Of a stretch of DNA of 64,000 bases, positions 12,154 to 26,027 are shown one piece after another (within the stretch, counting starts at the first letter, position 1; each line of letters begins with the position of its first letter). The stretch lies in assembly GCA_041738755.1 (NCBI GenBank), contig JBGSPE010000005.1, positions 207,872-271,871 of the forward strand, in the 5' to 3' direction. A model generated the notes under the pieces. That model made no database searches and was not told where the DNA came from. It was given only the letters and a program-made list of their open reading frames with translations. The position numbers and the translations under genes are program-made. The stretch comes from Minisyncoccia bacterium (GTDB lineage Bacteria > Patescibacteriota > Minisyncoccia > Phycocordibacterales > UBA918).

Positions 12154-12362
12154 ACGTTAAAAAATCTGACAAGATTTTAGTTTAAATAAGGCGGAGCTAT
12201 ATGAGAAGTGGCTTTATCCCGCCACGACGAATTGCGAGCCCGGGGAGGAAGTTCTTATGAGCGTAGCGAATTAGAAACTTGACCCTATAAACATAAAGCT
12301 AAAATTGCCAGCAACTCTAAACACACATACTCATTGTGCAGTAAGGCAAAGCACGTGATAAT

Positions 12363-12393
12363 AAAAGGACGTACATGTGGTACGTCCTTTTTT
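12363..12393 (+). terminator. rho-independent terminator ending 1 nt before the next start codon
   Basis: AAAAGGACGTAC-atgtg-GTACGTCCTTTTTT, immediately followed by ATG 12394. Confidence 0.7.
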
Positions 12394-12879
12394 ATGGACA
12401 CCAGCTTCATCCTTAATTTTCTCTCCGAAATTGCTTATCTCTTAATTGTGTTTGGGATTCTCTTTACCTTCGCGATTGTGAAAGGGAGGCAAGGAGTTAT
12501 CAATATTATTATCGGTCTCTATCTAGCACTGCTTATATCTCTTCAGTTTCCGTATTACGACCAACTCCTTGGCTCACTCACAACGTCTGAATCTATCGCC
12601 GGAGCCAAGCTCGCTATCTTCACAATCTTCACTGCTATCGCCACCTTCTTGTGTTTCCGTATCATGCCTGATGAGTTTAAAGAAAAAAAGTTTGAGAGCT
12701 TTTGGAAAAAATTCCTTCTGGCTACGATGGCTACCATTCTTGTAATGATTTACAGCTTCCAAGTTCTGCCGGTCACAGAATTCCTCACCCCAGGCACACC
12801 ACTCCAAACCCTCTTTGCTTCACCTGACTATTTCTTCTGGTGGCTTCTGGCCCCACTCGTAATTTTGTTCATTCTATAA
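12394..12879 (+). CDS. small polytopic membrane protein (CvpA-like?)
   Basis: Four predicted TM helices. I place the start at ATG 12394 because a terminator lies inside the track's longer 12334 ORF. Confidence 0.5.
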   Translation: MDTSFILNFLSEIAYLLIVFGILFTFAIVKGRQGVINIIIGLYLALLISLQFPYYDQLLGSLTTSESIAGAKLAIFTIFTAIATFLCFRIMPDEFKEKKFESFWKKFLLATMATILVMIYSFQVLPVTEFLTPGTPLQTLFASPDYFFWWLLAPLVILFIL

Positions 12880-12885
12880 ATTACT

Positions 12886-13299
12886 ATGAAAAAAATCATT
12901 ATCAAAACCATTCCTGATAGTCATCAGCGATACAATACTGTTGGTGACTATTATTTTGATGAACAAGGCAATCGAGTATTTGCCGTTTCTGACATGAACA
13001 ATTGGAAGTACGAGATGTTGGTAGTTGTTCACGAAATGATTGAGGCGGCACTCTGTGAAGATAGGGGAGTCACTGACAAAATGATTGATGACTTTGATTT
13101 TACCTTTGAAACGAAACGCCTTACTGACCCAAATATAGGTGAACCGGGAGATCAACCCGAAGCACCGTATTTCAAGGAGCACCAATTCGCCACCAAAATT
13201 GAGAAGATGCTAGCCGAAGAGCTTGGAGTTGATTGGAATTCCTATGCCTCCGTCTGTGCCAAATTAGATAGAAATACCGAAACGCTGCCACAAGTATAA
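12886..13299 (+). CDS. hypothetical protein
   Basis: 137 aa with the start 6 nt after the previous stop; an HEMIE motif; no family recognised. Confidence 0.45.
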   Translation: MKKIIIKTIPDSHQRYNTVGDYYFDEQGNRVFAVSDMNNWKYEMLVVVHEMIEAALCEDRGVTDKMIDDFDFTFETKRLTDPNIGEPGDQPEAPYFKEHQFATKIEKMLAEELGVDWNSYASVCAKLDRNTETLPQV

Positions 13300-13431: not shown

Positions 13432-14388
13432 TTGGACATTCTCAATTTTTTCCTCGACTTCATCTCTTCGGGATGGTTCATTGCCATCGTCGTTGCTGGT
13501 GCCATGTTTGCAGCCGGTGTAATTATCGATGAAAAACTCGTAAAAGAGCAAGCTATCGGTACGCTGGTCATAATCTCATCCCTCTTCGGGTTCGCGGTAA
13601 TGGCAGTTTTTGCCGGTATAGCGCACTACACCAATACCAGCCTCTACCTCGACCAGACAAGCCTCAAGTGGGCACTTTTGATTGGGGTTGGTGAGATTGC
13701 ATGGGTGGTACCATACCTCTATGCTCTCAAACGCCGCGGCGCAGTGGTAGCTGGTCCGATGTTCCAGCTCATTCCGGTTGCTGGTGGCGTTCTCGAAGCT
13801 ATATTCTTTGGCGTCATTCCACCTGCGATTCATGTAATTGGATCCATTCTCATCATTGGTGGAGGCTTCGTACTTTCTATCGAAGAAGAAGAGCTGGAAA
13901 ATGGTAGCACTGCTTACGTGTCTGACTGGAAAACAGTTGGTCTCATGGCGGTTTCTGCCATCATCGCATCTGCCATCTATGTCTTCTTCAAGGACACAGC
14001 AGGTGGAGAAGGTGGTTATGTTGCGGTAGGATTCTGGACTGGTCTAGGTATGGTGCTTACCGGCATCGTAATCTGGTTGGTATGGAAGCCATATCGAACT
14101 AACTTCAACGCCTTCTGCAAGAAAGCAAACGGCAAGATGGTTGCTCTGCAACTCCTCAATGAGACAGTGGATGCTGGTGGTGCGTACCTCACGCACTTCG
14201 CCAACATTCTTGGGCCGTCGGTCTTGATTGTAACAGCCTTCAATGCTGTTCAGCCAGTCTTCATCTTAATCTTTGTCGCCATACTCTTATTCTTCGGAAT
14301 TAAGGTGTGGGATATGGAATACAAGTGGAAGATTATCGTCCCATCAATCCTCACGATTGCAGGGGGGACAGTTCTGATTGCTCTCTAA
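13432..14388 (+). CDS. DMT/EamA-like 10-TM transporter
   Basis: 318 aa with two repeated five-TM halves. TTG start with an SD (GGAGG) 5 nt upstream. Confidence 0.55.
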   Translation: MDILNFFLDFISSGWFIAIVVAGAMFAAGVIIDEKLVKEQAIGTLVIISSLFGFAVMAVFAGIAHYTNTSLYLDQTSLKWALLIGVGEIAWVVPYLYALKRRGAVVAGPMFQLIPVAGGVLEAIFFGVIPPAIHVIGSILIIGGGFVLSIEEEELENGSTAYVSDWKTVGLMAVSAIIASAIYVFFKDTAGGEGGYVAVGFWTGLGMVLTGIVIWLVWKPYRTNFNAFCKKANGKMVALQLLNETVDAGGAYLTHFANILGPSVLIVTAFNAVQPVFILIFVAILLFFGIKVWDMEYKWKIIVPSILTIAGGTVLIAL

Positions 14389-14398
14389 ACTCATAAGT

Positions 14399-14436
14399 CC
14401 TTCCTGGGATAACTCGTTATCCCAGGAAGGCATTTT
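14399..14436 (+). terminator. rho-independent terminator (15-bp perfect inverted repeat + U tract)
   Basis: CCTTCCTGGGATAAC..GTTATCCCAGGAAGG followed by CATTTTCAT. Confidence 0.75.
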
Positions 14437-14455: not shown

Positions 14456-15271
14456 TTGCCTATGGCAAACAATCCACCTGACGAAAATTCTCATCAAAGA
14501 CTACAAAAATTCTTCACACCACTTGATTTAGCGGTTGAAGAAATTAAGCGTCGACAATTAGATACGGCTTTATTTAAAAAAGTTGAGGATTTTCTCGATG
14601 GTGATATACCAGAACATTTTGCTCAACCTGACCCAATATTTTATCTTTCTAGACACATTGCCACACCCAATTATGAAGCTCTACGCTTCGTTGAATTAGC
14701 AAAACCATATGGGTTACCAATGGTTATTGGTCAGGACAGCAAAGGTATTTTTGTTTCAAACAATGATCTGAAACGCCCCCTGGGAAAGCTACCTGTTACC
14801 AAAGGGGTATCTAGAAACCTTGACGAAATAGTTGAATATTTTACTATCGTTGACTTCACAGAACACCAAGGAAAACCATTTGCAGAAATTAAAACGAAGT
14901 TCGATAGAGACCTTGTTTCTTATCACAATGAGTTATTCCGGCAAATTTACCCTGTTGAGATGGAAATAGTTGATGAATCTGAATGGATTGATAGAAATCA
15001 CAGGGGAGATATTGTAGCTCAGTACAAAAAGATGCTGTCCTTACTCATTGTGCACGGCATCATGCTTGAATCCTATCCACCGCATGAACATGGCTTTGTA
15101 ACCAATGTACTGGAACCTGCTTATGACGAAGTATCAGAATATTTTGGAGTTAGACCATTAATTTCAGAACACATAGATAGTGACTTAGAAGAAACCCGGG
15201 ACTGGAATGGATACCCAAGTGTCTTGTACCAATTTCTCAAAAACGATACCGAGAAAAAGAAAGGTTCGTAG
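14456..15271 (+). CDS. hypothetical protein (first gene of the low-GC island)
   Basis: 271 aa; no recognisable motifs; GC drops sharply from here onward. Confidence 0.45.
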   Translation: MPMANNPPDENSHQRLQKFFTPLDLAVEEIKRRQLDTALFKKVEDFLDGDIPEHFAQPDPIFYLSRHIATPNYEALRFVELAKPYGLPMVIGQDSKGIFVSNNDLKRPLGKLPVTKGVSRNLDEIVEYFTIVDFTEHQGKPFAEIKTKFDRDLVSYHNELFRQIYPVEMEIVDESEWIDRNHRGDIVAQYKKMLSLLIVHGIMLESYPPHEHGFVTNVLEPAYDEVSEYFGVRPLISEHIDSDLEETRDWNGYPSVLYQFLKNDTEKKKGS

Positions 15272-15321: not shown

Positions 15322-15639
15322 ATGAAGTTGAAAAACATTCTACTAACCAGTGCAGTTGTGCTGTTTTTGGCAATCAGTATTGGAGCAACATATTATAAAA
15401 TGGTAGTTCTTCAAGATTTTGAGACAACTGGTATCTGGCTAGAATTTGTAGAGGAAGAATCAACCTATGTTTTCTTTGTCTATGAAAACGTCGAGTATGA
15501 ACTTGAGTTAGAAACGACTGATTATAATCTTATATTACTAAGTATTTCAGATGAAGTTGGCATACCAGTAGCTGATTTAGATCCAGACTTTCTTGAATAC
15601 CTTCAAGGTTCTTACGAAGAAGCCAGTTCATCAGAATAA
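15322..15639 (+). CDS. small secreted/anchored acidic protein
   Basis: An N-terminal hydrophobic signal or anchor (LLTSAVVLFLAISIGA) and an acidic C-terminal half. Confidence 0.45.
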   Translation: MKLKNILLTSAVVLFLAISIGATYYKMVVLQDFETTGIWLEFVEEESTYVFFVYENVEYELELETTDYNLILLSISDEVGIPVADLDPDFLEYLQGSYEEASSSE

Positions 15640-15643
15640 ACAT

Positions 15644-16243
15644 ATGAAAAAACCACAAATCTACTCATGGATGAATCCATCGCTAACAATTAAACGAACT
15701 GACCGGTATGGTAGTGCAGATTTGCCGACAATTAAAAACGGAAAAAAAACATATTCCAAGAAAAAAGGTTTAGGTTTTGCGGTATTTGCAAACAAAAAGA
15801 TTAAAAAAGATGAAGTTCTGTTTGTTATGGGTGGTTATGTTTTAACAATCGAAGATGAAAACGAACTATCAGGTATCGTCGCTGATAAACCTATCGAAAT
15901 TTCTGAAAAATTTTCAATAGGGCCACGTAAACCATCCGATATAGAAAAAATGCCTCAACATTATGTTAATCATAGCTGTAACCCTAACGCTGGATTCAAC
16001 GGACAAGTGTTTATGGTGGCTATGAAAAACATAAAAGCTCATGAAGAAATTGTTTATGACTATGCAATGATTATGCACACAAACAGTAAGAGTAATAGTT
16101 TTTTCACATTTGAGTGTTTATGTGAAAGTAAGGATTGTCGTAAAAAAATTGGAGAGAACGATTGGAAAATTAAAGACTTACAAAACAAGTATGACGGTTA
16201 TTTCCAGTACTATTTACAGGAAAAAATTAATAGACTTAAATAA
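15644..16243 (+). CDS. SET-domain protein (putative protein lysine methyltransferase)
   Basis: GLGFAVFANKKIKKDEVLF; the NHSCNPN motif; EEIVYDY; a post-SET CLCESKDCRKK. The likely start is ATG 15644, in frame with the track ORF. Confidence 0.7.
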   Translation: MKKPQIYSWMNPSLTIKRTDRYGSADLPTIKNGKKTYSKKKGLGFAVFANKKIKKDEVLFVMGGYVLTIEDENELSGIVADKPIEISEKFSIGPRKPSDIEKMPQHYVNHSCNPNAGFNGQVFMVAMKNIKAHEEIVYDYAMIMHTNSKSNSFFTFECLCESKDCRKKIGENDWKIKDLQNKYDGYFQYYLQEKINRLK

Positions 16244-16245
16244 TT

Positions 16246-17901
16246 ATGGAAACCTTAACTTGTTTAGATTCTGAAGCTACCTTGTTTGGAATTTTTGACC
16301 CAAGTATCGCACCACTACTTTTATATTATGCCTACGTTCCTATATCTATCATTTCAATATTTTTGGGTATCTTAGTACTTGTAAATAGAAAAAAATTCTC
16401 ATTACCAAACGTAAGTTTCTTCGCTCTTACAATTCTATACAGTTTGTACCTTATAAATGAAATTATTCAATGGATAGCTGTTCCCGCTGGATTAGTGAAT
16501 TTTGGTTGGGAAATGATTGCATTGTACTTTACATCAATATCAATGAGCCTCTTCTACTTTGTCTATACATTTATTGAAGAGAAGGATTTGTCTAGTAAGT
16601 TGAAACTAATCATCTTTGCATTATTTGCTCCGATAATTCTATTTTTACCAACTAGTTTAAATGTTAAGGGCTTTGACCTGGCAATCTGTCAAGCTGAAAT
16701 TGGCAATGGTTACCTATATGTTTATTTTATAATTATTCTCTCAATAGTCGGAATAATTGCCGTCTGTATTAAAAATTACTTGAAGGACAAAAAAGTATCT
16801 ACTATTTTATTGATGCTTGGATCTGTTTCGATGCTTCTTGTGTTGCTATTTGCTGACTTGGTGAGTGAGTACCTAGGAACTTTTGAATTCAACCTTATTG
16901 GTCCAGTTGGTATGCTTCTTTTTATGACAATCATTACGTATATGATTGTTACGTATAAGGCCTTTGATATCAAGGTGGCCGGAGCGCAAGCACTTGTATT
17001 TGCATTAATTATTTTGATTGCCTCACAACTACTCTTCGTGCGCTCAGCGACTAGTCAGATCCTAATTACAATTACGCTTATTATTTCTATCTTAGGCGGT
17101 TATTTCTTAGTAAAAAGTGTTAAGCGTGAAATACAACAACGAGAGCAAATTGAATCGCTAGCCAAAAACCTGGCCAAAGTAAATACGCGACTTAAAGAAC
17201 TCGACAAGCAGAAGTCTGAATTCGTTTCTATTGCCTCACACCAGCTCCGCAGTCCATTAACCGCAATCCGCGGTTACGCTTCGATGGTTATCGAAGGGAG
17301 CTATGGTCAAATTCCAGAGAAAGCCAAGGAATCACTTATGAGAATTGAAGAATCGGCCAAGCTGATGGCAATGTCTGTAGAGGACTACCTCAATGTGTCT
17401 CGAATTGAGTCTGGTAACATGAAGTATGTTTACAGTGACTTTAACCTTAACGAATCAGTCAGCAAAATATGTGACGACCTTCGTCCCGAAGCTATGAAGC
17501 GAAGTCTTATCCTCCTTAACCGTAGCGATATCAAGGGTCGCGGCATTGTTTATGCAGACGTAGGTAAGACACACCAAATCATCCACAACCTCATTAATAA
17601 CTCAATTAAATACACCCAGAAGGGGAGCATTTCAGTTTTTGTCCGTGATGACCTTATCAAGAAGCGTATTTATATCGATATCACTGACACCGGTATTGGC
17701 ATGAGTGAAAAGACCCAACACACTATCTTCCAAAAGTTTGAACGGGCTGAAAACGCTAACAGTGTAAATATTTCTGGTACTGGACTCGGACTCTACGTAG
17801 CTCACAAGATGGCTGAGCAAATGGGCGGTAATATCACCGCGTTCTCTGAAGGTGACGGTAAGGGCTCTCGCTTCACCATCGAATTACCACTAGCGATGTA
17901 A
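16246..17901 (+). CDS. sensor histidine kinase with multi-TM N-terminal domain
   Basis: About 7 TM helices, then HisKA (FVSIASHQLRSPLTAIRGY) and HATPase_c (GTGLGLYVAHKMAEQMGG). No response regulator is adjacent. Confidence 0.8.
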   Translation: METLTCLDSEATLFGIFDPSIAPLLLYYAYVPISIISIFLGILVLVNRKKFSLPNVSFFALTILYSLYLINEIIQWIAVPAGLVNFGWEMIALYFTSISMSLFYFVYTFIEEKDLSSKLKLIIFALFAPIILFLPTSLNVKGFDLAICQAEIGNGYLYVYFIIILSIVGIIAVCIKNYLKDKKVSTILLMLGSVSMLLVLLFADLVSEYLGTFEFNLIGPVGMLLFMTIITYMIVTYKAFDIKVAGAQALVFALIILIASQLLFVRSATSQILITITLIISILGGYFLVKSVKREIQQREQIESLAKNLAKVNTRLKELDKQKSEFVSIASHQLRSPLTAIRGYASMVIEGSYGQIPEKAKESLMRIEESAKLMAMSVEDYLNVSRIESGNMKYVYSDFNLNESVSKICDDLRPEAMKRSLILLNRSDIKGRGIVYADVGKTHQIIHNLINNSIKYTQKGSISVFVRDDLIKKRIYIDITDTGIGMSEKTQHTIFQKFERAENANSVNISGTGLGLYVAHKMAEQMGGNITAFSEGDGKGSRFTIELPLAM

Positions 17902-17926: not shown

Positions 17927-18502
17927 ATGTTCAATCTAAACGAAAAAATTGTTTTATTTGACACAGAATATACTGCTTGGGAGGGTAGTCGAGAACGTGG
18001 CTGGAGTAAGTCGAATGAGTATAAGGAAATTGTACAAATTGGTGGGATTATTCTAGAAACGCAGAACTTCACAGAAGTTTCTTGTTTTAATGTGTATGTT
18101 AAGCCGGTTCTTAATCCAATTCTGTCTGACTATTTTATAAATCTTACGGCCATTACTCAGGAGCTTGTTCAGAGTAGAGGGATTGATTTAATGTCAGCTT
18201 ATACTCGATTTGTTGATTGGAGTGCTGGAATAGACTCGTACTCCTTCGGACATGACGAAAAAGTAATTATCGAAAATTTTGGTTTACTCAATTTAAGTGC
18301 AAATTTTGAAACTCAGAGATTTTTCAACGCTAGAAATTTGTTTGAGGAAAATAATATCGATACCTCAAATTATAATAGTGGTAATATAATTGAGTACTTT
18401 GGAAAACAAGCTACGTTACGGGCACATGATGCTCTCAATGATAGCCGTATCATTGCAGATGCTCTAAGAGAAATGGTCTTAAATTCCAATAAGTTTAGGT
18501 AA
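17927..18502 (+). CDS. DEDDh 3'-5' exonuclease (DnaQ-like)
   Basis: Exo I LFDTEYT, with H and D in Exo III (HDALNDS). Confidence 0.65.
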   Translation: MFNLNEKIVLFDTEYTAWEGSRERGWSKSNEYKEIVQIGGIILETQNFTEVSCFNVYVKPVLNPILSDYFINLTAITQELVQSRGIDLMSAYTRFVDWSAGIDSYSFGHDEKVIIENFGLLNLSANFETQRFFNARNLFEENNIDTSNYNSGNIIEYFGKQATLRAHDALNDSRIIADALREMVLNSNKFR

Positions 18503-18545
18503 TTTGTGTTAAAATAGAAACCTAGATTTAAATCTATTAAATAAC

Positions 18546-19412
18546 ATGCAATTCGGGCTGATCGGCGGGGAGGATATAGAAAAGTACAGTATTGCCGACA
18601 GAATCTGGTCTATTATCTTATCTCAACATGATACCATTTCATATTTTTCATACTACCCAACTGTCAAAAAGAGTGACGTCTGTAGATTGCTTGAAAAAGT
18701 GCGCAGCTCTGAGATTGAGGGATTTAACGTTGCTCTTCCATGGAAGTCAGCAGTTGCAGAATATTGTGATTTCAAGTCCCCGGTAGTTGAAATGACTGGT
18801 TTTGCAAATGTTGTTTACTCGGAAAGTGGTAAATTGATTGCCGATAATACTGATGGGGTGGGATTTATTGCAGGACTAAAGAAAATTCCTAAAAGCGCTT
18901 TAATTTATGGAGCTGGCGGAGCAGGAGTTGTACTTGCCTATGAACTTTCAAATCTCGGCTCAAGTGTCACAATTGTTGACGTAGATAATGAAAAAATAAT
19001 CTACTTCAATGAAAAGTGTGCAAACTGGCAAAATGCTGATCTTGTTATCGCAAGAGACTCAGATTCAATTGAATTGACTTCGTTTGAAATGGTAGTTAAT
19101 GCAACCCCGTTAGGTAAGAAAAACCATGTATCTAGTGAAAGCTCGGTATCGTATAATAATCAGTCACCGATTCCTTCAGGTCATATAAGTGCTTTTAAGA
19201 AAGGGACTTTATTTGCCGAAATGAATTACTACCCTTTAAAAACTAAATTCATTGATGATGCAGAATCTCATGGAATGGAAATTCAGTTTGGAATAGTAAT
19301 GCTATTTCATCAAGCTGCTAAAACTTACGAGTTATATTCAGGTAAAAAGACTGCGGCTCCAATAAATTTTAATAAACTTTATTTAGACATTTTTAGTTTA
19401 AATAAAGACTAA
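18546..19412 (+). CDS. shikimate/quinate dehydrogenase (AroE) family protein
   Basis: GFNVALPWKSAV and NTDGVGF with a Rossmann GAGGAG match the AroE family pattern. Confidence 0.55.
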   Translation: MQFGLIGGEDIEKYSIADRIWSIILSQHDTISYFSYYPTVKKSDVCRLLEKVRSSEIEGFNVALPWKSAVAEYCDFKSPVVEMTGFANVVYSESGKLIADNTDGVGFIAGLKKIPKSALIYGAGGAGVVLAYELSNLGSSVTIVDVDNEKIIYFNEKCANWQNADLVIARDSDSIELTSFEMVVNATPLGKKNHVSSESSVSYNNQSPIPSGHISAFKKGTLFAEMNYYPLKTKFIDDAESHGMEIQFGIVMLFHQAAKTYELYSGKKTAAPINFNKLYLDIFSLNKD

Positions 19413-19572
19413 GTTTGGTATTGAAAGACAAATAAATCAATCAGAGAATCTACAAGATACAGAAAGGGAATACAGACTCAAATATAAAGGTTCTAAAGAT
19501 TGGTTCTTTTGTCCTGAGTCAATCATCAGTGAACAAACCAACGACCTAGAAGGACAGCTTAGTCATATTGAA

Positions 19573-20541
19573 ATGCCTGCATTTGGGGTTAATGTATTCA
19601 CTGACTCAGACAGGCTTTTTGAACAGATTAATCAGTTCAATGGTTTTTATCAGTCCGAACAATCAGTGGTGGATGGTAAAAAACTTTTTTACATCACAGA
19701 CAAATCAAATGTACCACCACTGCCAAACCCATTGGGTGGTGTTGGTTTAGTAGAGATGTCCTCAGAACCGGCAGACGTACTTTGTGACCCCTTATCAGGT
19801 TCTTATGTAATTAATTGTTGGGACAGGTTTACTTCGATGGAAAGCTTAGTGCTCGGTATACGGAGTTTTGATAATTTGCGTAAGGGTAAATTAGGTATGC
19901 ACGCTGCTCTTATAGAGAAAGATGGCCAGGGGTATATATTGATAGGGAAACCAAAGACAGGCAAAACAACGATCTCGATGTCCCTGGCTGCTCAAGGGTT
20001 TAAACTAATCAGTGACGATTGGGTAGAGGTTGAGAAGAGTGACAGAGAATTTATGGCCTCTGGAACTAATCCTTCTGTTTCCTTAGATCAGCAAACGTTA
20101 TCCATGCTTCAGTCTCAGTATGAGCAATATCACGATGTAGAGTCAATGGGTTTTTCATCGTACGGTAAGCAAATCATGCCAATAAGTAATATAAATAATG
20201 TTTGGAGCCCAAAACAACAAATACCTGTTCGGAAAGTCTTTATTTTAGATAATAACAGTACTGACTCAGAGCCGGTAAATAGTGAGTATTTTTCAGACTT
20301 ACTAAAAATCACTGATCCTCATACTCCGTTTATGAATACTCCAGAAGGTTCAGGTGTGCGGACAGTAAGTGGTATTTCAGATGAGATCAGGTATGGAATA
20401 CAACATATTACTGATTCACAAAACCAAAGACAATACTTGGCTGAAGAATTTGTAAAAAGTGGTTCACATAGTGTTCAAAAATTTAGAAATAAGGACTACA
20501 CGCTAGAAGAAGCTATAGCACATATAAGAAATCAAATATGA
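19573..20541 (+). CDS. HprK C-terminal-like P-loop kinase domain protein
   Basis: GMHAALIEKDGQGYILIGKPKTGKTTISMSLAAQGFKLISDDWVEV aligns with HPr kinase ([23 protein letters not shown]...LVADDRVEI). The in-frame upstream extension has no start codon. Confidence 0.55.
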   Translation: MPAFGVNVFTDSDRLFEQINQFNGFYQSEQSVVDGKKLFYITDKSNVPPLPNPLGGVGLVEMSSEPADVLCDPLSGSYVINCWDRFTSMESLVLGIRSFDNLRKGKLGMHAALIEKDGQGYILIGKPKTGKTTISMSLAAQGFKLISDDWVEVEKSDREFMASGTNPSVSLDQQTLSMLQSQYEQYHDVESMGFSSYGKQIMPISNINNVWSPKQQIPVRKVFILDNNSTDSEPVNSEYFSDLLKITDPHTPFMNTPEGSGVRTVSGISDEIRYGIQHITDSQNQRQYLAEEFVKSGSHSVQKFRNKDYTLEEAIAHIRNQI

Positions 20542-21461
20542 AAATATTAATTACTGGCTCATCTGGTTTAATTGGTGGATTTATTTATTCGCATTTAAAC
20601 TCCAACCATTCACTTCTCGGTATTGATATTATTAATTCGGAGACTACTGATAAATTAGTTGATATTACAGATAAAGATTGCCTAAAGAATATTCTAGATG
20701 AATTTGAGCCAGATATGGTGATTCATGTTGCTGCTCAGAAAGACTTAATTCAGTGTGAAGAAAACAAGGCTGAAACATGGTGCTCTAATGTTAATCCATT
20801 GAGCATAATAACTGACTATCTCTCACAAAAAACCGGTAAATTAATATATATATCATCAGATATGGTATTTGATGGTACTAAAGGTAATTATACGGAAGAA
20901 GACCCTACGTGCCCAATCAATTGGTATGGTGCAACTAAGGTAGCTGGTGAACTTATACCGGTTATACGAATGGCGGAGAACTCGATTTCAATACTACGAA
21001 CAGCGCAAGTCTTCGGTCCGGTTACTGAAGCTTTAATTCACTATGTAAACGTAAAAATTGACTGCGATACAATGACTAATCAAAGTGCTTTGCCCTTATT
21101 TATTAAAATGAGACTTTCGAGGGGTTTGCCGGTAGTATTGCCGAATAATGTCACTTCATCGCCTACACCTGTAACGTTGATTGCTGATGTTGTGAATAAA
21201 ATAATTGAAAATGGAGTAGGCACAGGTCTCCTGCATGTTGCTGGGACAGAGTCTTACAGTAGATTTGAGCTTGGTCGACAGATTGCTGAACTATTAGAAC
21301 TCCCGAAAGACCTTATTGTTCACGGTGTAGATGCCACTACACATCTCAGGCCACATGACTTGTCTATGAATGTTAATAAGTTGGAGAAATTATTTAATAT
21401 CAAAAAAACAGAGTACGATATTTTAAAATACATTAAACAACAAATTTATTATGCACAATAA
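20538..21461 (+). CDS. NAD(P)-dependent epimerase/dehydratase or reductase (SDR, RmlD-like)
   Basis: ILITGSSGLIGG and YGATK (YxxxK). Its start overlaps the upstream stop (ATGA). Confidence 0.7.
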   Translation: MKILITGSSGLIGGFIYSHLNSNHSLLGIDIINSETTDKLVDITDKDCLKNILDEFEPDMVIHVAAQKDLIQCEENKAETWCSNVNPLSIITDYLSQKTGKLIYISSDMVFDGTKGNYTEEDPTCPINWYGATKVAGELIPVIRMAENSISILRTAQVFGPVTEALIHYVNVKIDCDTMTNQSALPLFIKMRLSRGLPVVLPNNVTSSPTPVTLIADVVNKIIENGVGTGLLHVAGTESYSRFELGRQIAELLELPKDLIVHGVDATTHLRPHDLSMNVNKLEKLFNIKKTEYDILKYIKQQIYYAQ

Positions 21462-22158
21462 GTATTTTGAACAATTGAACGCACTCTTCTTGTATCTTGA
21501 TGAAGTTTTACCTAAAAAAATTACAGCCACTTTTATCCATGGATCATTTGCATCTCGTACTGAAACCTCAGCAATTTATCAAGAACAGATGTTCTACTTT
21601 GACAATGGAACTTTTTGGTTTTCAGTCTTGCATTTACAAGATATACCTCCTGACGTCGATATAATAACTGTAACAGACTACCCTGAAGAGGTTTTGGATG
21701 TGGTGCAAGAAAGTGCAAAGAAATATCTTGATGAGACATTTTTTCTAACCCTCAACATCATAACTTCAAGCGAATATGAAAGAATTGTATCTTCCAACGA
21801 TGCTTTAGCGCCAAAAAGGTTACTTGTAAAAAAGATGCTAAATGTTCTAAAGGGCGAAGATTACATAAATAAACTGAAATCTACAGCAATTAAAAACTAC
21901 AATGATTTAGACGATACTATTCAAACTGAGTTTGATAAGAAGAAACTACTCCTTAATGAACTGGCTTCAAAAAGTGTAAGTCATCATGTGCTTACTAGAG
22001 AGTACTACACTCAGCATTATCCAAATCTTTTAGATGAAATGGATGGCGTGCGAGTCGGTGGCTTTAACGTTGATCGTGTAAAGTTAGTCTATCCACAGTC
22101 AATGAATCTAAAGTGTAGGGTGGATATTAAAGATTATTCAGTAAAGTATCTAGAATAA
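21451..22158 (+). CDS. putative nucleotidyltransferase-fold protein
   Basis: IHGSFAS ... DVDII resembles the hG[GS]...DhD motif of pol-beta-like NTases, with atypical spacing. Low confidence. Overlaps the upstream gene by 11 nt. Confidence 0.35.
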   Translation: MHNKYFEQLNALFLYLDEVLPKKITATFIHGSFASRTETSAIYQEQMFYFDNGTFWFSVLHLQDIPPDVDIITVTDYPEEVLDVVQESAKKYLDETFFLTLNIITSSEYERIVSSNDALAPKRLLVKKMLNVLKGEDYINKLKSTAIKNYNDLDDTIQTEFDKKKLLLNELASKSVSHHVLTREYYTQHYPNLLDEMDGVRVGGFNVDRVKLVYPQSMNLKCRVDIKDYSVKYLE

Positions 22159-22161
22159 GTT

Positions 22162-23340
22162 ATGCGTATAGCTGTTATTTGTAGACCTGATGTTCCGGTT
22201 CCTCCATACGAAGGGTATGGAGGTCTTCAGCGTAATATATTCGACTTCATAGAAGAATTAGGTAAACGTAATATTGAAGTTGCATTGTTTGCTTCTCTAG
22301 ATTCTAATGTCTCAAAATTAAAAAACGTCACCCTTTACGGCTCACTAAAGTCGGCATTATGGTCAGATCTCGTAGTAAACAAAGATTTTAAGTCAAAAAC
22401 TAAAGAACAAATTGCAATTCAAGCTGAGGCTAATAAAAAGCTGGAGGCCGAGTTTGTCGACTATATTGTTAATGAACTTGCTAATATTAGAGCAGATATT
22501 ATTTTTGTTGCGTACGATAATTTAGATCTACTTTCGAGGTTACAAGGTGGTATGTACAAAAATAAAATTGTTTGGTCGCTGAGAGACAACTTAAACGTAG
22601 AAAAGATCAGCTTTATAAAATCACATCCAGAAATTTTCATGACAGGTATGGCTGATCATATAGAAATTGAACTTCACTCAATTGATAATGTACATACTAT
22701 AATTTGGGGTATTAACCCTAATCTTTATGAATTTTCTCCATACTGTCTGACTAAGACTGATGAAGTACCGAGTCTTCAAATACTTAAGAGTATGCAAGCT
22801 AGGGGTCAAGATTATCTAGTAATGGTTTCAGGTATTGGTCAACACAAGGGTCAATTAACTGCTATAAAAATCGCAAAAGAAAATAACCTGGCATTAATTT
22901 TGGCGGGCACCCCGCAGGATCATCTGACTCTCAAAAAAACGGATTATTTTAAAAACGAGATTGAACCTTTGCTGACAAATGATATTATTCATTTTGGGAA
23001 TGCGAATGAGGTTCAAAAGACTGAATTATTGCGCTATGCAAAAGCTACTTTGGTGCCGTCAGGTTTTGAGTTTAAAGAGTTCAAAGAGCCTTTTGGTAGA
23101 GTAGTGGCTGAGTCCTTTGCTTGTGGGACTCCTGTAATTGCATATAGACACGGCTCACTTCAATTCATTGTGGAGGATAAAAAAGTTGGTTTTTTATTTG
23201 ATACATTCGATGATGCTGTGTATGCAACTCAAAAGATAGATTCAATTAATCGTTGGGAAGTTAGAAAATACTTAGAAAATACACTATCTATTAAGCGGGT
23301 AGTAGATGAGTATATAGTTTTGTTTAATAATATAATTTAA
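22162..23340 (+). CDS. glycosyltransferase family 4 (GT-B)
   Basis: EPFGRVVAESFACGTPVIA, the GT4 E-x7-E region. Confidence 0.7.
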   Translation: MRIAVICRPDVPVPPYEGYGGLQRNIFDFIEELGKRNIEVALFASLDSNVSKLKNVTLYGSLKSALWSDLVVNKDFKSKTKEQIAIQAEANKKLEAEFVDYIVNELANIRADIIFVAYDNLDLLSRLQGGMYKNKIVWSLRDNLNVEKISFIKSHPEIFMTGMADHIEIELHSIDNVHTIIWGINPNLYEFSPYCLTKTDEVPSLQILKSMQARGQDYLVMVSGIGQHKGQLTAIKIAKENNLALILAGTPQDHLTLKKTDYFKNEIEPLLTNDIIHFGNANEVQKTELLRYAKATLVPSGFEFKEFKEPFGRVVAESFACGTPVIAYRHGSLQFIVEDKKVGFLFDTFDDAVYATQKIDSINRWEVRKYLENTLSIKRVVDEYIVLFNNII

Positions 23341-23345
23341 TAGTT

Positions 23346-23954
23346 ATGGATTTAGAAATATTTGAACAAGTTAGAGCTGATTTAAAAGAAATTTTTCCAC
23401 CTGAAACTGATGAGCCGAGATTTCGATACGTTAAACAGACTTGGATATTTCCAAATCATTTTGATATAACTGTCCGCTTCGCAAAACAATTAGCAGAAAA
23501 ATATAACGCTGATGTTCAAGTGTGCATGCTTGCAGCTTTGCTACATGATGCAGGTCTGGCATACAAACGAGATCGAGCAGATTCTATTGGCCATGAGGAA
23601 CGTAGTGTTGAGTATGTATATGAGTTCCTACCAAAATATGGTTATGATGCTGACACAGTAAAAGCTGTCGCTGATTCTGTTATTGCTACTGAACCGAAGG
23701 CCGAAGTCACTACTATTGAAGCAAAGGTCGTACGTACTGCTGATGCTCTGGCACACATACAATCGGTACATTACCTTGCAAAAGCTGTTTTTAGCCCAAC
23801 CTGGGACGACGCCATTGCATTTGTTGAACGTAAAGTACATGCTGATTACGATAAAATATGTTTTGAGGATGAACGACTAAAGATTGCGCCAATTTACAAT
23901 TATTTTGTCTCAATTATTGAACAATACAAAGGAAATAATATAATTAATTTATAA
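23346..23954 (+). CDS. HD-domain phosphohydrolase
   Basis: H...LLHDAG...D; last gene of the tight five-gene operon. Confidence 0.6.
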   Translation: MDLEIFEQVRADLKEIFPPETDEPRFRYVKQTWIFPNHFDITVRFAKQLAEKYNADVQVCMLAALLHDAGLAYKRDRADSIGHEERSVEYVYEFLPKYGYDADTVKAVADSVIATEPKAEVTTIEAKVVRTADALAHIQSVHYLAKAVFSPTWDDAIAFVERKVHADYDKICFEDERLKIAPIYNYFVSIIEQYKGNNIINL

Positions 23955-24000
23955 GAAAAATCCTATTCTGTTTTAACTGTAATTGTAATTTTTATACAGT

Positions 24001-25041
24001 TTGGGTATGAAAACTCTTTCAAAAATTAGAGTAGGAGATACGGTAGCAATGGTCTCACCGTCTTTTGCGGCACCTGGAGTGTGGCCACACATGTATGAAC
24101 TTGGACTGCAGCGACTGAGGATAGTCTTTGAACTTGAGCCAGTATCGTATCCTGCTACAGCAAAAGTTGGTGCGAGTGGAGAAGAGCGAGCGGCCGATTT
24201 AATTGCTGCATTTTCTGACCCTGAGGTAAAGGCTGTTATTGCTTCACTTGGTGGTGATGACCAGGTGACTTATATAAAGTACTTACCATCAGAGCCGTTT
24301 ATCAATAATCCCAAACCATTCTTTGGATTTAGTGATAATTCTCATTTTTGTAACTTTCTTTTTCTTAATAACATTCCGTCCTTTTACGGAGCGTCACTCT
24401 TTACCCAGTTTGCTATGCAAGGAGCGATGGATGACTATACGGTTGAATATATTAAGCACGCATTGTTTGAAACAGGAGAAAAAGAACTTATAGCCTCTTC
24501 GATATATAACGACCAAGGACTCCCCTGGGATAATCTTGAAACTATGAAGGACCAAAGAGAACATTGGGAGAACCCTGGATTTGTGTGGTCACAAGCAGCA
24601 AAAAATGCAGAAGGTAGACTCTGGGGAGGTTGTATCGAATCAGTAGATGAGATGTTAAGGCACGATATTACCATCCCAACTCTTGAGCAATTTGAAAACA
24701 TTGTTCTCATGCTTGAGAGCTCAGAGGAACTACCGGCCGCAGAGTATGTTTTTCGTGTATTGAGAGGATTGGGCGAGCGAGGAATACTTGAACGAATACA
24801 AGGTGTGTTGGTGGGAAGAGCGAAAGCGTGGGAGTTTGATAAACCAAACTCTTTTGAAGAAAAAGAAACTTATCGAGAAAACCAAATCAAGGCTTTCGAA
24901 AAGGCTCTCTCACTATACAACCCAAATATTCCACTTGTACAAAACCTCAACTTTGGTCACACTGACCCACAAATTCCTATGCCATACGGAAACAAAGTCA
25001 GGATTGATTGTGAACATAAACGAATTTTTGCTACTTTCTAA
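24001..25041 (+). CDS. LD-carboxypeptidase (peptidase S66, LdcA/MccF-like)
   Basis: VAMVSPSFA; catalytic GFSDNS; FGHTDP. GC returns to the core level here. Confidence 0.75.
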   Translation: MGMKTLSKIRVGDTVAMVSPSFAAPGVWPHMYELGLQRLRIVFELEPVSYPATAKVGASGEERAADLIAAFSDPEVKAVIASLGGDDQVTYIKYLPSEPFINNPKPFFGFSDNSHFCNFLFLNNIPSFYGASLFTQFAMQGAMDDYTVEYIKHALFETGEKELIASSIYNDQGLPWDNLETMKDQREHWENPGFVWSQAAKNAEGRLWGGCIESVDEMLRHDITIPTLEQFENIVLMLESSEELPAAEYVFRVLRGLGERGILERIQGVLVGRAKAWEFDKPNSFEEKETYRENQIKAFEKALSLYNPNIPLVQNLNFGHTDPQIPMPYGNKVRIDCEHKRIFATF

Positions 25042-25079: not shown

Positions 25080-26027
25080 ATGTCAGATACTAAAAAACGT
25101 TTACTTACCGGACTACAGTCTTCGGGGACACTACACATTGGGAATTACTTTGGGGCTCTGAAGCCATTCCTCGATATCTACGAACAGTATGATAGCTACC
25201 TCATGGTAGCTGATTACCATGCCCTTACCTCAATCCGAGACCCGGAAGTGATGCGAGATAATATCATCAACGTGGTCAAAGACTATTTGGCTGTCGGGGT
25301 TGACCCTGAGAAAGCAATTATCTTCCGTCAGTCTGATAATCAGGACCATATGGAGCTTGGCTGGGTATTTAACTGTCTCGTGACAGTGCCATTTTTGATG
25401 CAGGCTCATTCGTATAAAGATAAGGTCGCCAAAGGACTTGAACCAAACGCCGGACTCTTTACCTACCCAATGCTGCAAGCAGCTGATATTGCTCTCTACA
25501 ACATCGATGTAGTGCCGGTCGGGGAAGATCAACGACAACATATTGAATACGCGAGAGAAGCGGTGGGTAAGTTTAATCGAGCGTTTGGAGAGACGCTGAA
25601 AGAGCCGGAAGAAATTATTCTCGATAGTGTCGGTGTCGTACCTGGAACCGACGGACAAAAGATGAGTAAGAGCTATGGTAATACCATTCCACTGTTTGGT
25701 ACCAAAGAAGAAATTGAGAAAGCTGTTATGAGTATCGTGACCGACTCGTCAGGCGAACGACCAGAACATGTGTACGCTATTCACCGTCTCTTGAAGCCGG
25801 CCGAAGAACTTGACCCAATCTACGAAACCCACAAAGGTCGCTACGGTGACTTGAAGAAACTACTCGCGGCTGATTTAGAAACCTTTATCGCTCCGATGCG
25901 AGAAAAGCGAGCCAGTCTTACCTTTGATGATGTAGCAGCCGTGCTCACCAATGGAAACATGAAAGCGAAAGAAGTCACAAGCCAAACCCTCGACCGAGTC
26001 CGTAAAGCTATTGGAATAAGTTTATAA
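25080..26027 (+). CDS. trpS: tryptophanyl-tRNA synthetase
   Basis: HIGH-type TGLQSSGTLHIGNY and KMSKS. Confidence 0.93.
   Translation: MSDTKKRLLTGLQSSGTLHIGNYFGALKPFLDIYEQYDSYLMVADYHALTSIRDPEVMRDNIINVVKDYLAVGVDPEKAIIFRQSDNQDHMELGWVFNCLVTVPFLMQAHSYKDKVAKGLEPNAGLFTYPMLQAADIALYNIDVVPVGEDQRQHIEYAREAVGKFNRAFGETLKEPEEIILDSVGVVPGTDGQKMSKSYGNTIPLFGTKEEIEKAVMSIVTDSSGERPEHVYAIHRLLKPAEELDPIYETHKGRYGDLKKLLAADLETFIAPMREKRASLTFDDVAAVLTNGNMKAKEVTSQTLDRVRKAIGISL

Follow-up and report, generated by a model that had tools for sequence, protein, structure and literature searches.

We analyzed a stretch of 64,000 nucleotides from contig JBGSPE010000005.1 (here referred to as the window), in which a gene for a SET-domain methyltransferase (15644–16243, + strand) is located directly upstream of the gene for a sensor histidine kinase (16246–17901, +). 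The genome is Saccharibacteria- or candidate phyla radiation (CPR)-like; the labelled genome matches were metagenome-assembled genomes of Saccharibacteria, and one relative of a neighbouring protein came from Candidatus Nomurabacteria. Five genes, all on the + strand, are tightly packed here. These are an EamA/DMT-family transporter (13432–14388; Pfam EamA 35.7 bits), a protein of 271 aa from an unnamed family, here named p271 (14456–15271), a small single-pass membrane protein, here named p105 (15322–15639), the SET gene and the kinase gene. The p105 stop lies 4 nt before the SET start, and the gap from SET to kinase is 2 nt. A terminator-like hairpin (14399–14430, +) with a 14-bp stem containing 7 G-C pairs closes the EamA gene and is the likely upstream edge of a p271-SET-kinase unit. 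EamA itself is probably a conserved neighbour forming a separate transcription unit. Promoter scans were uninformative, with fewer matches than in shuffled sequence, and the Rfam search found no RNA family in the window.

The SET open reading frame (ORF) runs from ATG to TAA and comprises 199 codons. A longer reading from an upstream TTG at 15593 is an alternative; the ATG was preferred since the homologues begin there with the motif MKK..PQ[IM]FSWMNP. The predicted protein is composed of SET-N, SET-I and SET-C, a zinc-binding post-SET part and a C-terminal extension of 34 aa with two helices. The initial annotation, made from the sequence alone, had described a complete SET and post-SET signature in a protein of about 200 aa. 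This was borne out by the Pfam SET search (PF00856) that had been set beforehand: the protein scored 49.3 bits (E 7.3e-13), above the gathering score of 22.4, and was aligned to profile positions 1–104 of 105. The motifs VNHSCNPN (residues 108–115), EEIVYDY (134–140) and C158-x-C160-x4-C165 were present. A mis-alignment of NHSC or of the catalytic Tyr was looked for; in the phmmer comparison with the SET/post-SET region of MLL1 both were in register (NHSC/NHSC, YDY/YDY and CLCESKDCRK/CNCGAKKCRK), the single-sequence match having an E of 3.6e-4. The protein has four cysteines in total, C112, C158, C160 and C165, and these are the expected zinc ligands. In an alignment of 41 family members N109, C112, Y140, C158, C160 and C165 were invariant.

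An AlphaFold2 model built from the family alignment had a mean predicted local distance difference test (pLDDT) of 91.1 and a predicted template-modelling score of 0.86. Foldseek returned 313 PDB matches at E<=1e-3, and the best 50 were all SET domains. The top folds included SETD2, MLL4, NSD1, MLL1, ASH1L, SUV39H2, SET7/9 and the bacterial enzyme BurB, with a probability of 1.00 for the best. The closest solved relatives of the family profile were the KMT2A-D SET domains (E 1.6e-15). BurB was outside the best 60 PDB matches of this profile and was not matched by the single sequence at E<=0.01 in the PDB sequence search. By all of these sequence and fold comparisons the protein genuinely belongs to the SET superfamily, an assignment far beyond chance. 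Its catalytic and zinc residues are intact, and it is predicted to be catalytically active.

The Phe/Tyr-switch position is occupied by Tyr138, and a Tyr was found here in 98 of 120 close homologues. In MLL1, SET7/9 and DIM-5 a Tyr at this position goes along with mono- or di-methylation. Mono- or di-methyl products are therefore probable for the window enzyme.

Among the solved structures the KMT2/MLL enzymes are the best sequence relatives. NHSC, E-E-x-x-Y-D-Y and CxCx4C-R are in register, the fold is the same and the MLL1 switch residue is also a Tyr. However, the window protein is a stand-alone prokaryotic protein of 199 aa without WRAD-type partners or chromatin-reader domains. Furthermore, MLL ends right after the post-SET, whereas the window SET adds the highly conserved extension of 34 aa and, together with its subclade, a hairpin of 21 residues inserted at residues 24–45.

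A second point of comparison is BurB of Burkholderia thailandensis (PDB 9L4T, 9L4V), a SET methionine S-methyltransferase of 172 aa which acts on free methionine (PMC12542666). Like the window SET it is a small stand-alone bacterial protein with a CxCGxxxCRxxIT motif followed by about 30 further residues. However, BurB carries LHSC and MDY instead of NHSC and YDY, it belongs to a dimethylsulfoniopropionate/secondary-metabolite cluster and it does not lie beside a kinase. The extension motif of the window protein, DDW..LQ..Y.GYF, did not align to BurB.

The initial annotation had regarded bacterial SET proteins as rare, a view that our searches do not support. A word-indexed search gave 261 full-length relatives. 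The best 120 of these shared 52–100% identity (mostly 52–75%) over nearly the full length, with the exception of one double-SET protein at 45%. Of the 1.84 billion cluster representatives (clusters at 50% identity) that were searched exhaustively with the profile, 230 matched at E<=1e-30 and 2373 at E<=1e-10. This is in agreement with a review that counted SET genes in >500 bacterial genomes by 2014 and argued for a bacterial origin (PMC3980110). The family is thus large, widespread, well conserved and uncharacterised among prokaryotes. Stand-alone members have about 175–205 aa, and the organism-labelled close relatives were from Porticoccaceae and Burkholderiaceae. More distant members that keep the C-terminal extension are encoded on plasmids of Leptospira, Paraburkholderia, Streptomyces and Deinococcus, where the Prokaryotic Genome Annotation Pipeline names them 'SET domain-containing protein-lysine N-methyltransferase'. 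One of these is a SET-HAD fusion with the variant motifs RHSC and IDY (WP_015004477.1; L094, 5866–7410, pSYMBR3459 of Paraburkholderia phenoliruptrix). No SET relative was present in the INPHARED phage collection. In IMG/VR there was one weak relative with 31–34% identity (L090, 3100–3744; UViG_3300047160_001573) on a 59-kb contig classed as viral. NCBIfam had no family-level model for SET, p271 or p105, and PADLOC gave no defence-system match for any of the three.

Several features set this family apart in the alignment of 41 sequences. These are a conserved N-terminal strand (FSWMNP), a strongly conserved SET-I segment (ADKPIEIS..FSIGP) and, additionally, MPQHYVNHSCNPNAGF. In the 34-residue extension beyond the post-SET part the residues E171, W174, L179, Q180, Y183 and F187 were invariant, and its two helices were modelled with a pLDDT of 94–97. 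Many relatives occur as tandem gene pairs or as fused double SETs (e.g. P0069; others of about 350 aa), and typically one copy of a pair has a Tyr switch and the other a Phe or Ile switch. The pairing suggests that the copies have divided the work between them, either by methylation state or by substrate. A second paralogue was found nearby in 7 related loci; tandem genes were seen in L025, L032, L057 and L078. The window has a single copy only, which is of the Tyr type.

To compare gene neighbourhoods, about 95 related loci were gathered, all of their ORFs were compared with the window proteins and the neighbours were clustered without prior labels. A scan of the genome collection contributed 3 loci only, its patterns being too specific. 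The two recurrent partners of the SET gene that emerged are p271 and the kinase.

The p271 protein had no Pfam, NCBIfam or PDB sequence match, a profile search of the PDB included, and all of its 98 homologues, among them the one from Candidatus Nomurabacteria, are annotated as hypothetical. Its AlphaFold2 model (pLDDT 93.5) gave no significant PDB match in the fold search (best E 1e-3, template-modelling score 0.26). Faint matches to HUP/Rossmann-like proteins were seen, namely the Atg7 C-terminal domain, TtuA, NadD, PanC, USP and TyrRS. After the first strand comes a conserved loop, SRHIATPNYE, which resembles a degenerate HIGH motif. A receiver-like domain was considered for p271 as well and was rejected, as the spacing of its invariant Asp and Lys residues does not fit REC.

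The gene for p271 adjoins SET or is near it in 20 loci. In addition, two cluster representatives, P0130 (454 aa) and P0175 (437 aa), carry a p271 domain at the N-terminus and a family SET behind it. Aligned by hhalign with the p271 family, they reached probabilities of 99.7 and 99.9% and E values of 7e-27 and 5e-32, respectively, over about 240 columns. Since the two proteins are fused in some lineages and encoded side by side in others, they would be expected to act jointly, and this is the strongest single argument for such a joint action. Going by these gene arrangements, p271 is a likely functional partner of the SET protein.

The kinase (551 aa; HisKA 54.8 bits, HATPase_c 89.6 bits) has an N-terminal region of about 7–8 transmembrane (TM) segments followed by a coiled coil, HisKA and HATPase_c, with no PAS or HAMP domain. 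A HisKA_7TM match of 22.2 bits was under the cut-off of that model. The H-box (SHQLRSPL) is intact. An orthologous kinase directly adjoins SET in 44 of the 59 informative loci, and the sensor region of these kinases is homologous as well (29–55% identity over about 300 aa). Three arrangements were found. In the first, both genes are co-directional and separated by -8 to +15 bp, very often with a 4-bp ATGA overlap; in the second, a small membrane-protein gene lies between the co-directional genes; in the third, SET and kinase are divergent and 19–68 bp apart. The two genes are still neighbours in L074 and L091, although the identity of SET has fallen there to 37% and 34%, respectively, and p271 and a small Cys-rich membrane protein are present there too. 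In a set of 26 non-redundant loci, the pairwise identities of SET and those of the kinase were correlated (Mantel rho 0.36, p 5e-4).

In L091 (573–3987) the kinase is 54% identical to that of the window (76% in the catalytic half), and the SET protein has a Trp at the switch. This suggests that SET was replaced or is diverging fast inside a conserved module. The reverse search with the sensor region of the kinase (word-indexed) gave 12 proteins, mostly fragments. Here L091 was the one informative locus for kinase-to-SET adjacency, and a SET gene was present; in L092 and L093 the sequence ends too near the gene to tell.

The initial annotation had placed the SET gene next to an orphan sensor kinase, and this description stands. 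Besides the 2-bp gap, no receiver domain was detected in the window, neither with CheY/PhoB probes nor with a small receiver hidden Markov model even at E<=10. A response regulator within 5 kb was found in 2 of the approximately 95 related loci. The kinase is therefore without the adjoining response regulator that defines a classical two-component system.

A further link to sensors was found on a plasmid of Deinococcus sp. KNUC1210 (L096, 6004–7589), where a distant family SET gene overlaps the gene of a Cache/HAMP membrane sensor by 4 bp. The annotated SET protein is short (158 aa), and a frameshift may have split off its N-terminal half, which would then be the 'hypothetical' ORF that overlaps it upstream. 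This overlap is independent support for a signalling link.

In most related loci a small TM protein, homologous or analogous to p105, is encoded either ahead of SET or in between SET and the kinase. In the window this position is taken by p105, which has one predicted TM segment (residues 6–24) and an acidic C-terminal domain. It was matched by BLASTP to the neighbour cluster c16 (E 8e-4) and to the Cys-rich cluster c4 (E 0.014).

In 26 related loci an EamA gene was found no more than 3 kb from SET, in several of them on the opposite strand. A divergent PurD-like ATP-grasp protein of about 430–470 aa (about 35 bits on GARS_A and GARS_C) is encoded next to SET or EamA, within 3 kb of SET, in 25 loci, and directly upstream of SET in loci that lack the kinase. 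In genomes as reduced as these, this protein is probably not a genuine PurD of purine synthesis. The 25 loci include L003–L006, L013, L027, L032, L056, L070, L077 and L080; the window has no ATP-grasp gene. In four loci (L075, L077, L078 and L080) a conserved protein of about 585 aa without Pfam match is encoded directly upstream of a kinase-less SET gene of 37–43% identity.

Upstream of EamA (12334–13299) two conserved hypothetical genes encode p181, with 5 TM segments, and p137, a soluble protein without Pfam match. A wider block, DnaJ-p181-EamA-p271-SET-kinase-tRNA-synt_1b, is common to several relatives, and p181 was found in the same block in L023, L028, L066 and L074.

The GC content at third codon positions (GC3) of most window genes is 0.39–0.46. 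It is 0.31 for p271, 0.26 for p105, 0.28 for SET and 0.39 for the kinase, and 0.23–0.34 for the eight genes of the segment 17927–25041 (+), which follows the kinase. The initial annotation had assigned the SET gene to an acquired low-GC island. The low GC3 of SET is real, but the assignment to the island was rejected on synteny: SET, kinase, p271, EamA, DnaJ and tRNA-synt_1b are syntenic among the relatives. In L007, L023/L024 and L026, whose SET proteins are 68–75% identical, the kinase is followed within 0.25–1.6 kb by a tRNA-synt_1b gene that is 74–79% identical, whereas the distance to its orthologue in the window (25080–26027) is 7.2 kb. The inserted segment is therefore 17927–25041; SET is not part of it but of an old syntenic block. 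Furthermore, among 30 orthologous loci there were 21 in which the GC3 of SET was below that of the flanking genes (Wilcoxon p 0.003), and the same was often true of p271. Since the low GC3 recurs in the orthologues, it is a property of the gene, or of a module moved long ago, and not a sign of recent acquisition here.

The segment 17927–25041 is a lineage-specific insertion without counterpart in the close relatives and is possibly a cassette for cell-envelope or sugar modification. Its first four genes encode a DEDDh/RNase_T exonuclease, a shikimate-dehydrogenase-like protein, an HPr-kinase-like protein (weak ScmC match) and an NAD epimerase. An unknown protein, a GT1 glycosyltransferase, an HD hydrolase and an S66 LD-carboxypeptidase follow.

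The explanation that we favour, tentatively and with somewhat less than even confidence, is that a cytoplasmic SET enzyme, together with p271, adds one or two methyl groups to a lysine-type amine on an endogenous protein and serves as output or modulator of the membrane kinase unit. In this mechanism the SET domain with its zinc post-SET cluster would transfer the methyl group of S-adenosylmethionine to a lysine-type primary amine. The acceptor would be an endogenous target, most probably a protein, and the product would carry one or two methyl groups. The enzyme would work jointly with p271 and would be made from one transcript with p105 and the polytopic kinase that lacks an adjoining response regulator; in many relatives the overlapping genes would be translationally coupled. 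Since SET would be co-expressed with the kinase and a small membrane protein, lysine methylation could be either the output of this membrane signalling unit or its modulator. We infer the amine acceptor, a protein rather than a metabolite as substrate, and the functional coupling to the kinase. The window SET and its subfamily retain all canonical residues of protein-lysine SET enzymes: NHSC and YDY are both retained here, whereas BurB (LHSC, MDY) and the Paraburkholderia member (RHSC, IDY) deviate at both. Because the family travels with a membrane kinase and p271, an action inside the cell is more likely than one on a host.

Two known systems illustrate the favoured mechanism. The small prokaryotic Go1-SET of Methanosarcina mazei methylates an endogenous non-histone substrate, MC1-alpha, which follows the same logic; however, neither in the window nor in the related loci is SET linked to a gene for a nucleoid protein. 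In CheR/CheB a methyltransferase is genetically coupled to membrane signalling, and methylation may tune that signalling. This is a functional analogy only, as CheR is a class I (Rossmann) enzyme forming glutamyl methyl esters on methyl-accepting chemotaxis proteins (MCPs), whereas an amine would be the acceptor of the window SET, and MCP, CheB and CheY are all absent.

Some of our observations weigh against the favoured mechanism. In larger genomes, family SET genes without the kinase lie beside integrase and restriction-modification genes in L008/L009 and beside toxin-antitoxin genes in L010–L012. Where SET and kinase are divergent, it looks as if SET alone had been inverted in place. As the whole block is syntenic in Saccharibacteria, part of the adjacency of SET and kinase may be inherited order. 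In addition, several fusions and neighbours (HAD, LPG_synthase_C, Kdo transferase, MFS, EamA and the PurD-like ATP-grasp) suggest a chemistry of metabolites or of the envelope instead of a protein as substrate. Finally, BurB also has the active-site Tyr and CxCx4C, and the motifs alone are therefore no proof of a lysine or protein substrate.

Alternatively, the SET enzyme may methylate a small molecule or lipid as BurB does, that is a free, carrier- or lipid-linked metabolite such as an amino-acid-derived amine; p271, and the ATP-grasp protein in relatives, would then build or activate the substrate, EamA would export the product and the kinase would regulate the pathway or sense it. BurB is indeed among the Foldseek matches (E 1.4e-6) and shares the CxCGxxxCRxxIT motif, and p271 shows the faint nucleotide-binding (HUP-like) fold. 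The member on the Paraburkholderia symbiosis plasmid (pSym), whose closest solved relative is BurB, is fused to a HAD phosphatase (family match by hhalign E 6e-20, C-terminal extension included) and lies among a SerC-like aminotransferase, an HMGL-like enzyme, two short-chain dehydrogenases/reductases and an EamA/DMT transporter, so that the cluster looks like a small-molecule pathway. Other fusions join SET to LPG_synthase_C (an MprF-like aminoacyl-transferase domain), two SETs to a Kdo transferase, or SET to MFS, and the counts for EamA (26 loci) and ATP-grasp (25 loci) fit in the same way. However, each fusion type is represented by one or two clusters, the window SET has the canonical NHSC and YDY and the family profile is far closer to KMT2 than to BurB. 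Moreover, the strong hairpin splits EamA from the operon, EamA is on the opposite strand in several relatives, the ATP-grasp gene is missing from the window, and Saccharibacteria have very limited biosynthesis. On balance a BurB-like role is a serious alternative, although less likely than not. The conserved synteny of the whole region in compact genomes, the Proteobacterial family members that do without this kinase and the 50–70% identity from CPR to Proteobacteria, as expected for a universal substrate, would suit a general housekeeping protein-lysine methyltransferase, e.g. of a nucleoid, ribosomal or translation protein, with kinase and p271 adjacent by inherited order only; Go1-SET and MC1-alpha provide an archaeal precedent (PMC3980110). 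The p271-SET fusions argue for a specific partnership instead, and the stop-start overlaps with the kinase in many lineages, the module that is kept around a strongly diverged SET and the independent SET-sensor overlap in Deinococcus do not fit with mere gene order. We regard a housekeeping role as quite unlikely. A regulator of a nucleoid protein, another proposal of the initial annotation, was neither borne out nor contradicted by the analysis.

The initial annotation had also proposed a candidate effector. Chlamydia NUE/cpnSET, Legionella RomA/LegAS4 and Bacillus anthracis BaSET are secreted into eukaryotic hosts and methylate histones there. A secreted effector of this kind, horizontally acquired in a low-GC island and methylating host proteins, would be consistent with the probable episymbiotic life of the organism, with the GC3 of SET and p271 below that of their neighbours and with the mobile contexts (integrase, toxin-antitoxin) of some family members; like the known effectors, the window SET is bacterial and probably belongs to an organism living on or in another cell. 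However, the protein had no hydrophobic, TM or Sec-type signal segment, type III/IV signals not being scorable in this way. The N-terminus is a conserved structural part of the fold that is common to free-living bacteria, and the gene is syntenic and co-operonic with the kinase in many genomes, while the inserted island lies downstream of the kinase. No bacterial effector SET structure was among the best sequence or fold matches; the comparison with these effectors consisted in looking for them at the top of the PDB match lists, where they did not appear. Here, moreover, the host is presumably a bacterium. To our knowledge, the known hosts of Saccharibacteria are bacteria (Actinobacteria), which have no histones. 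Moreover, the family is not restricted to host-associated lineages, being present in Porticoccaceae, Burkholderiaceae, Deinococcus, Leptospira, Streptomyces and CPR. An effector role is therefore very improbable.

A further-reaching version of the favoured mechanism is that SET and p271 form a two-component enzyme in the role of the response regulator. The kinase and p105 would then signal via amine methylation or be tuned by it, or else the pair would methylate a non-protein amine (an aminoacyl-lipid or an exported metabolite) under control of the kinase. We consider this rather unlikely. If true, either version would represent an undescribed methylation-based module for envelope signalling or modification across Saccharibacteria, echoed in Deinococcus and Paraburkholderia.

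Our literature search found nothing on SET proteins in Saccharibacteria or on a linkage of SET and kinase genes, and both the p271 fusion and the conserved kinase operon are apparently undescribed genomic leads. Bacterial SET proteins have mostly been discussed as effectors acting on host histones, whereas the family studied here has conserved bacterial partners. If the links to these partners are merely inherited gene order, the window gene encodes an ordinary uncharacterised SET methyltransferase. Saccharibacteria have very few regulatory genes. If the links are functional, they would offer a route to the native substrate of a large prokaryotic SET family and could reveal that methylation of lysine or of amines plays a part in the signalling of these organisms or in the biology of their envelope.

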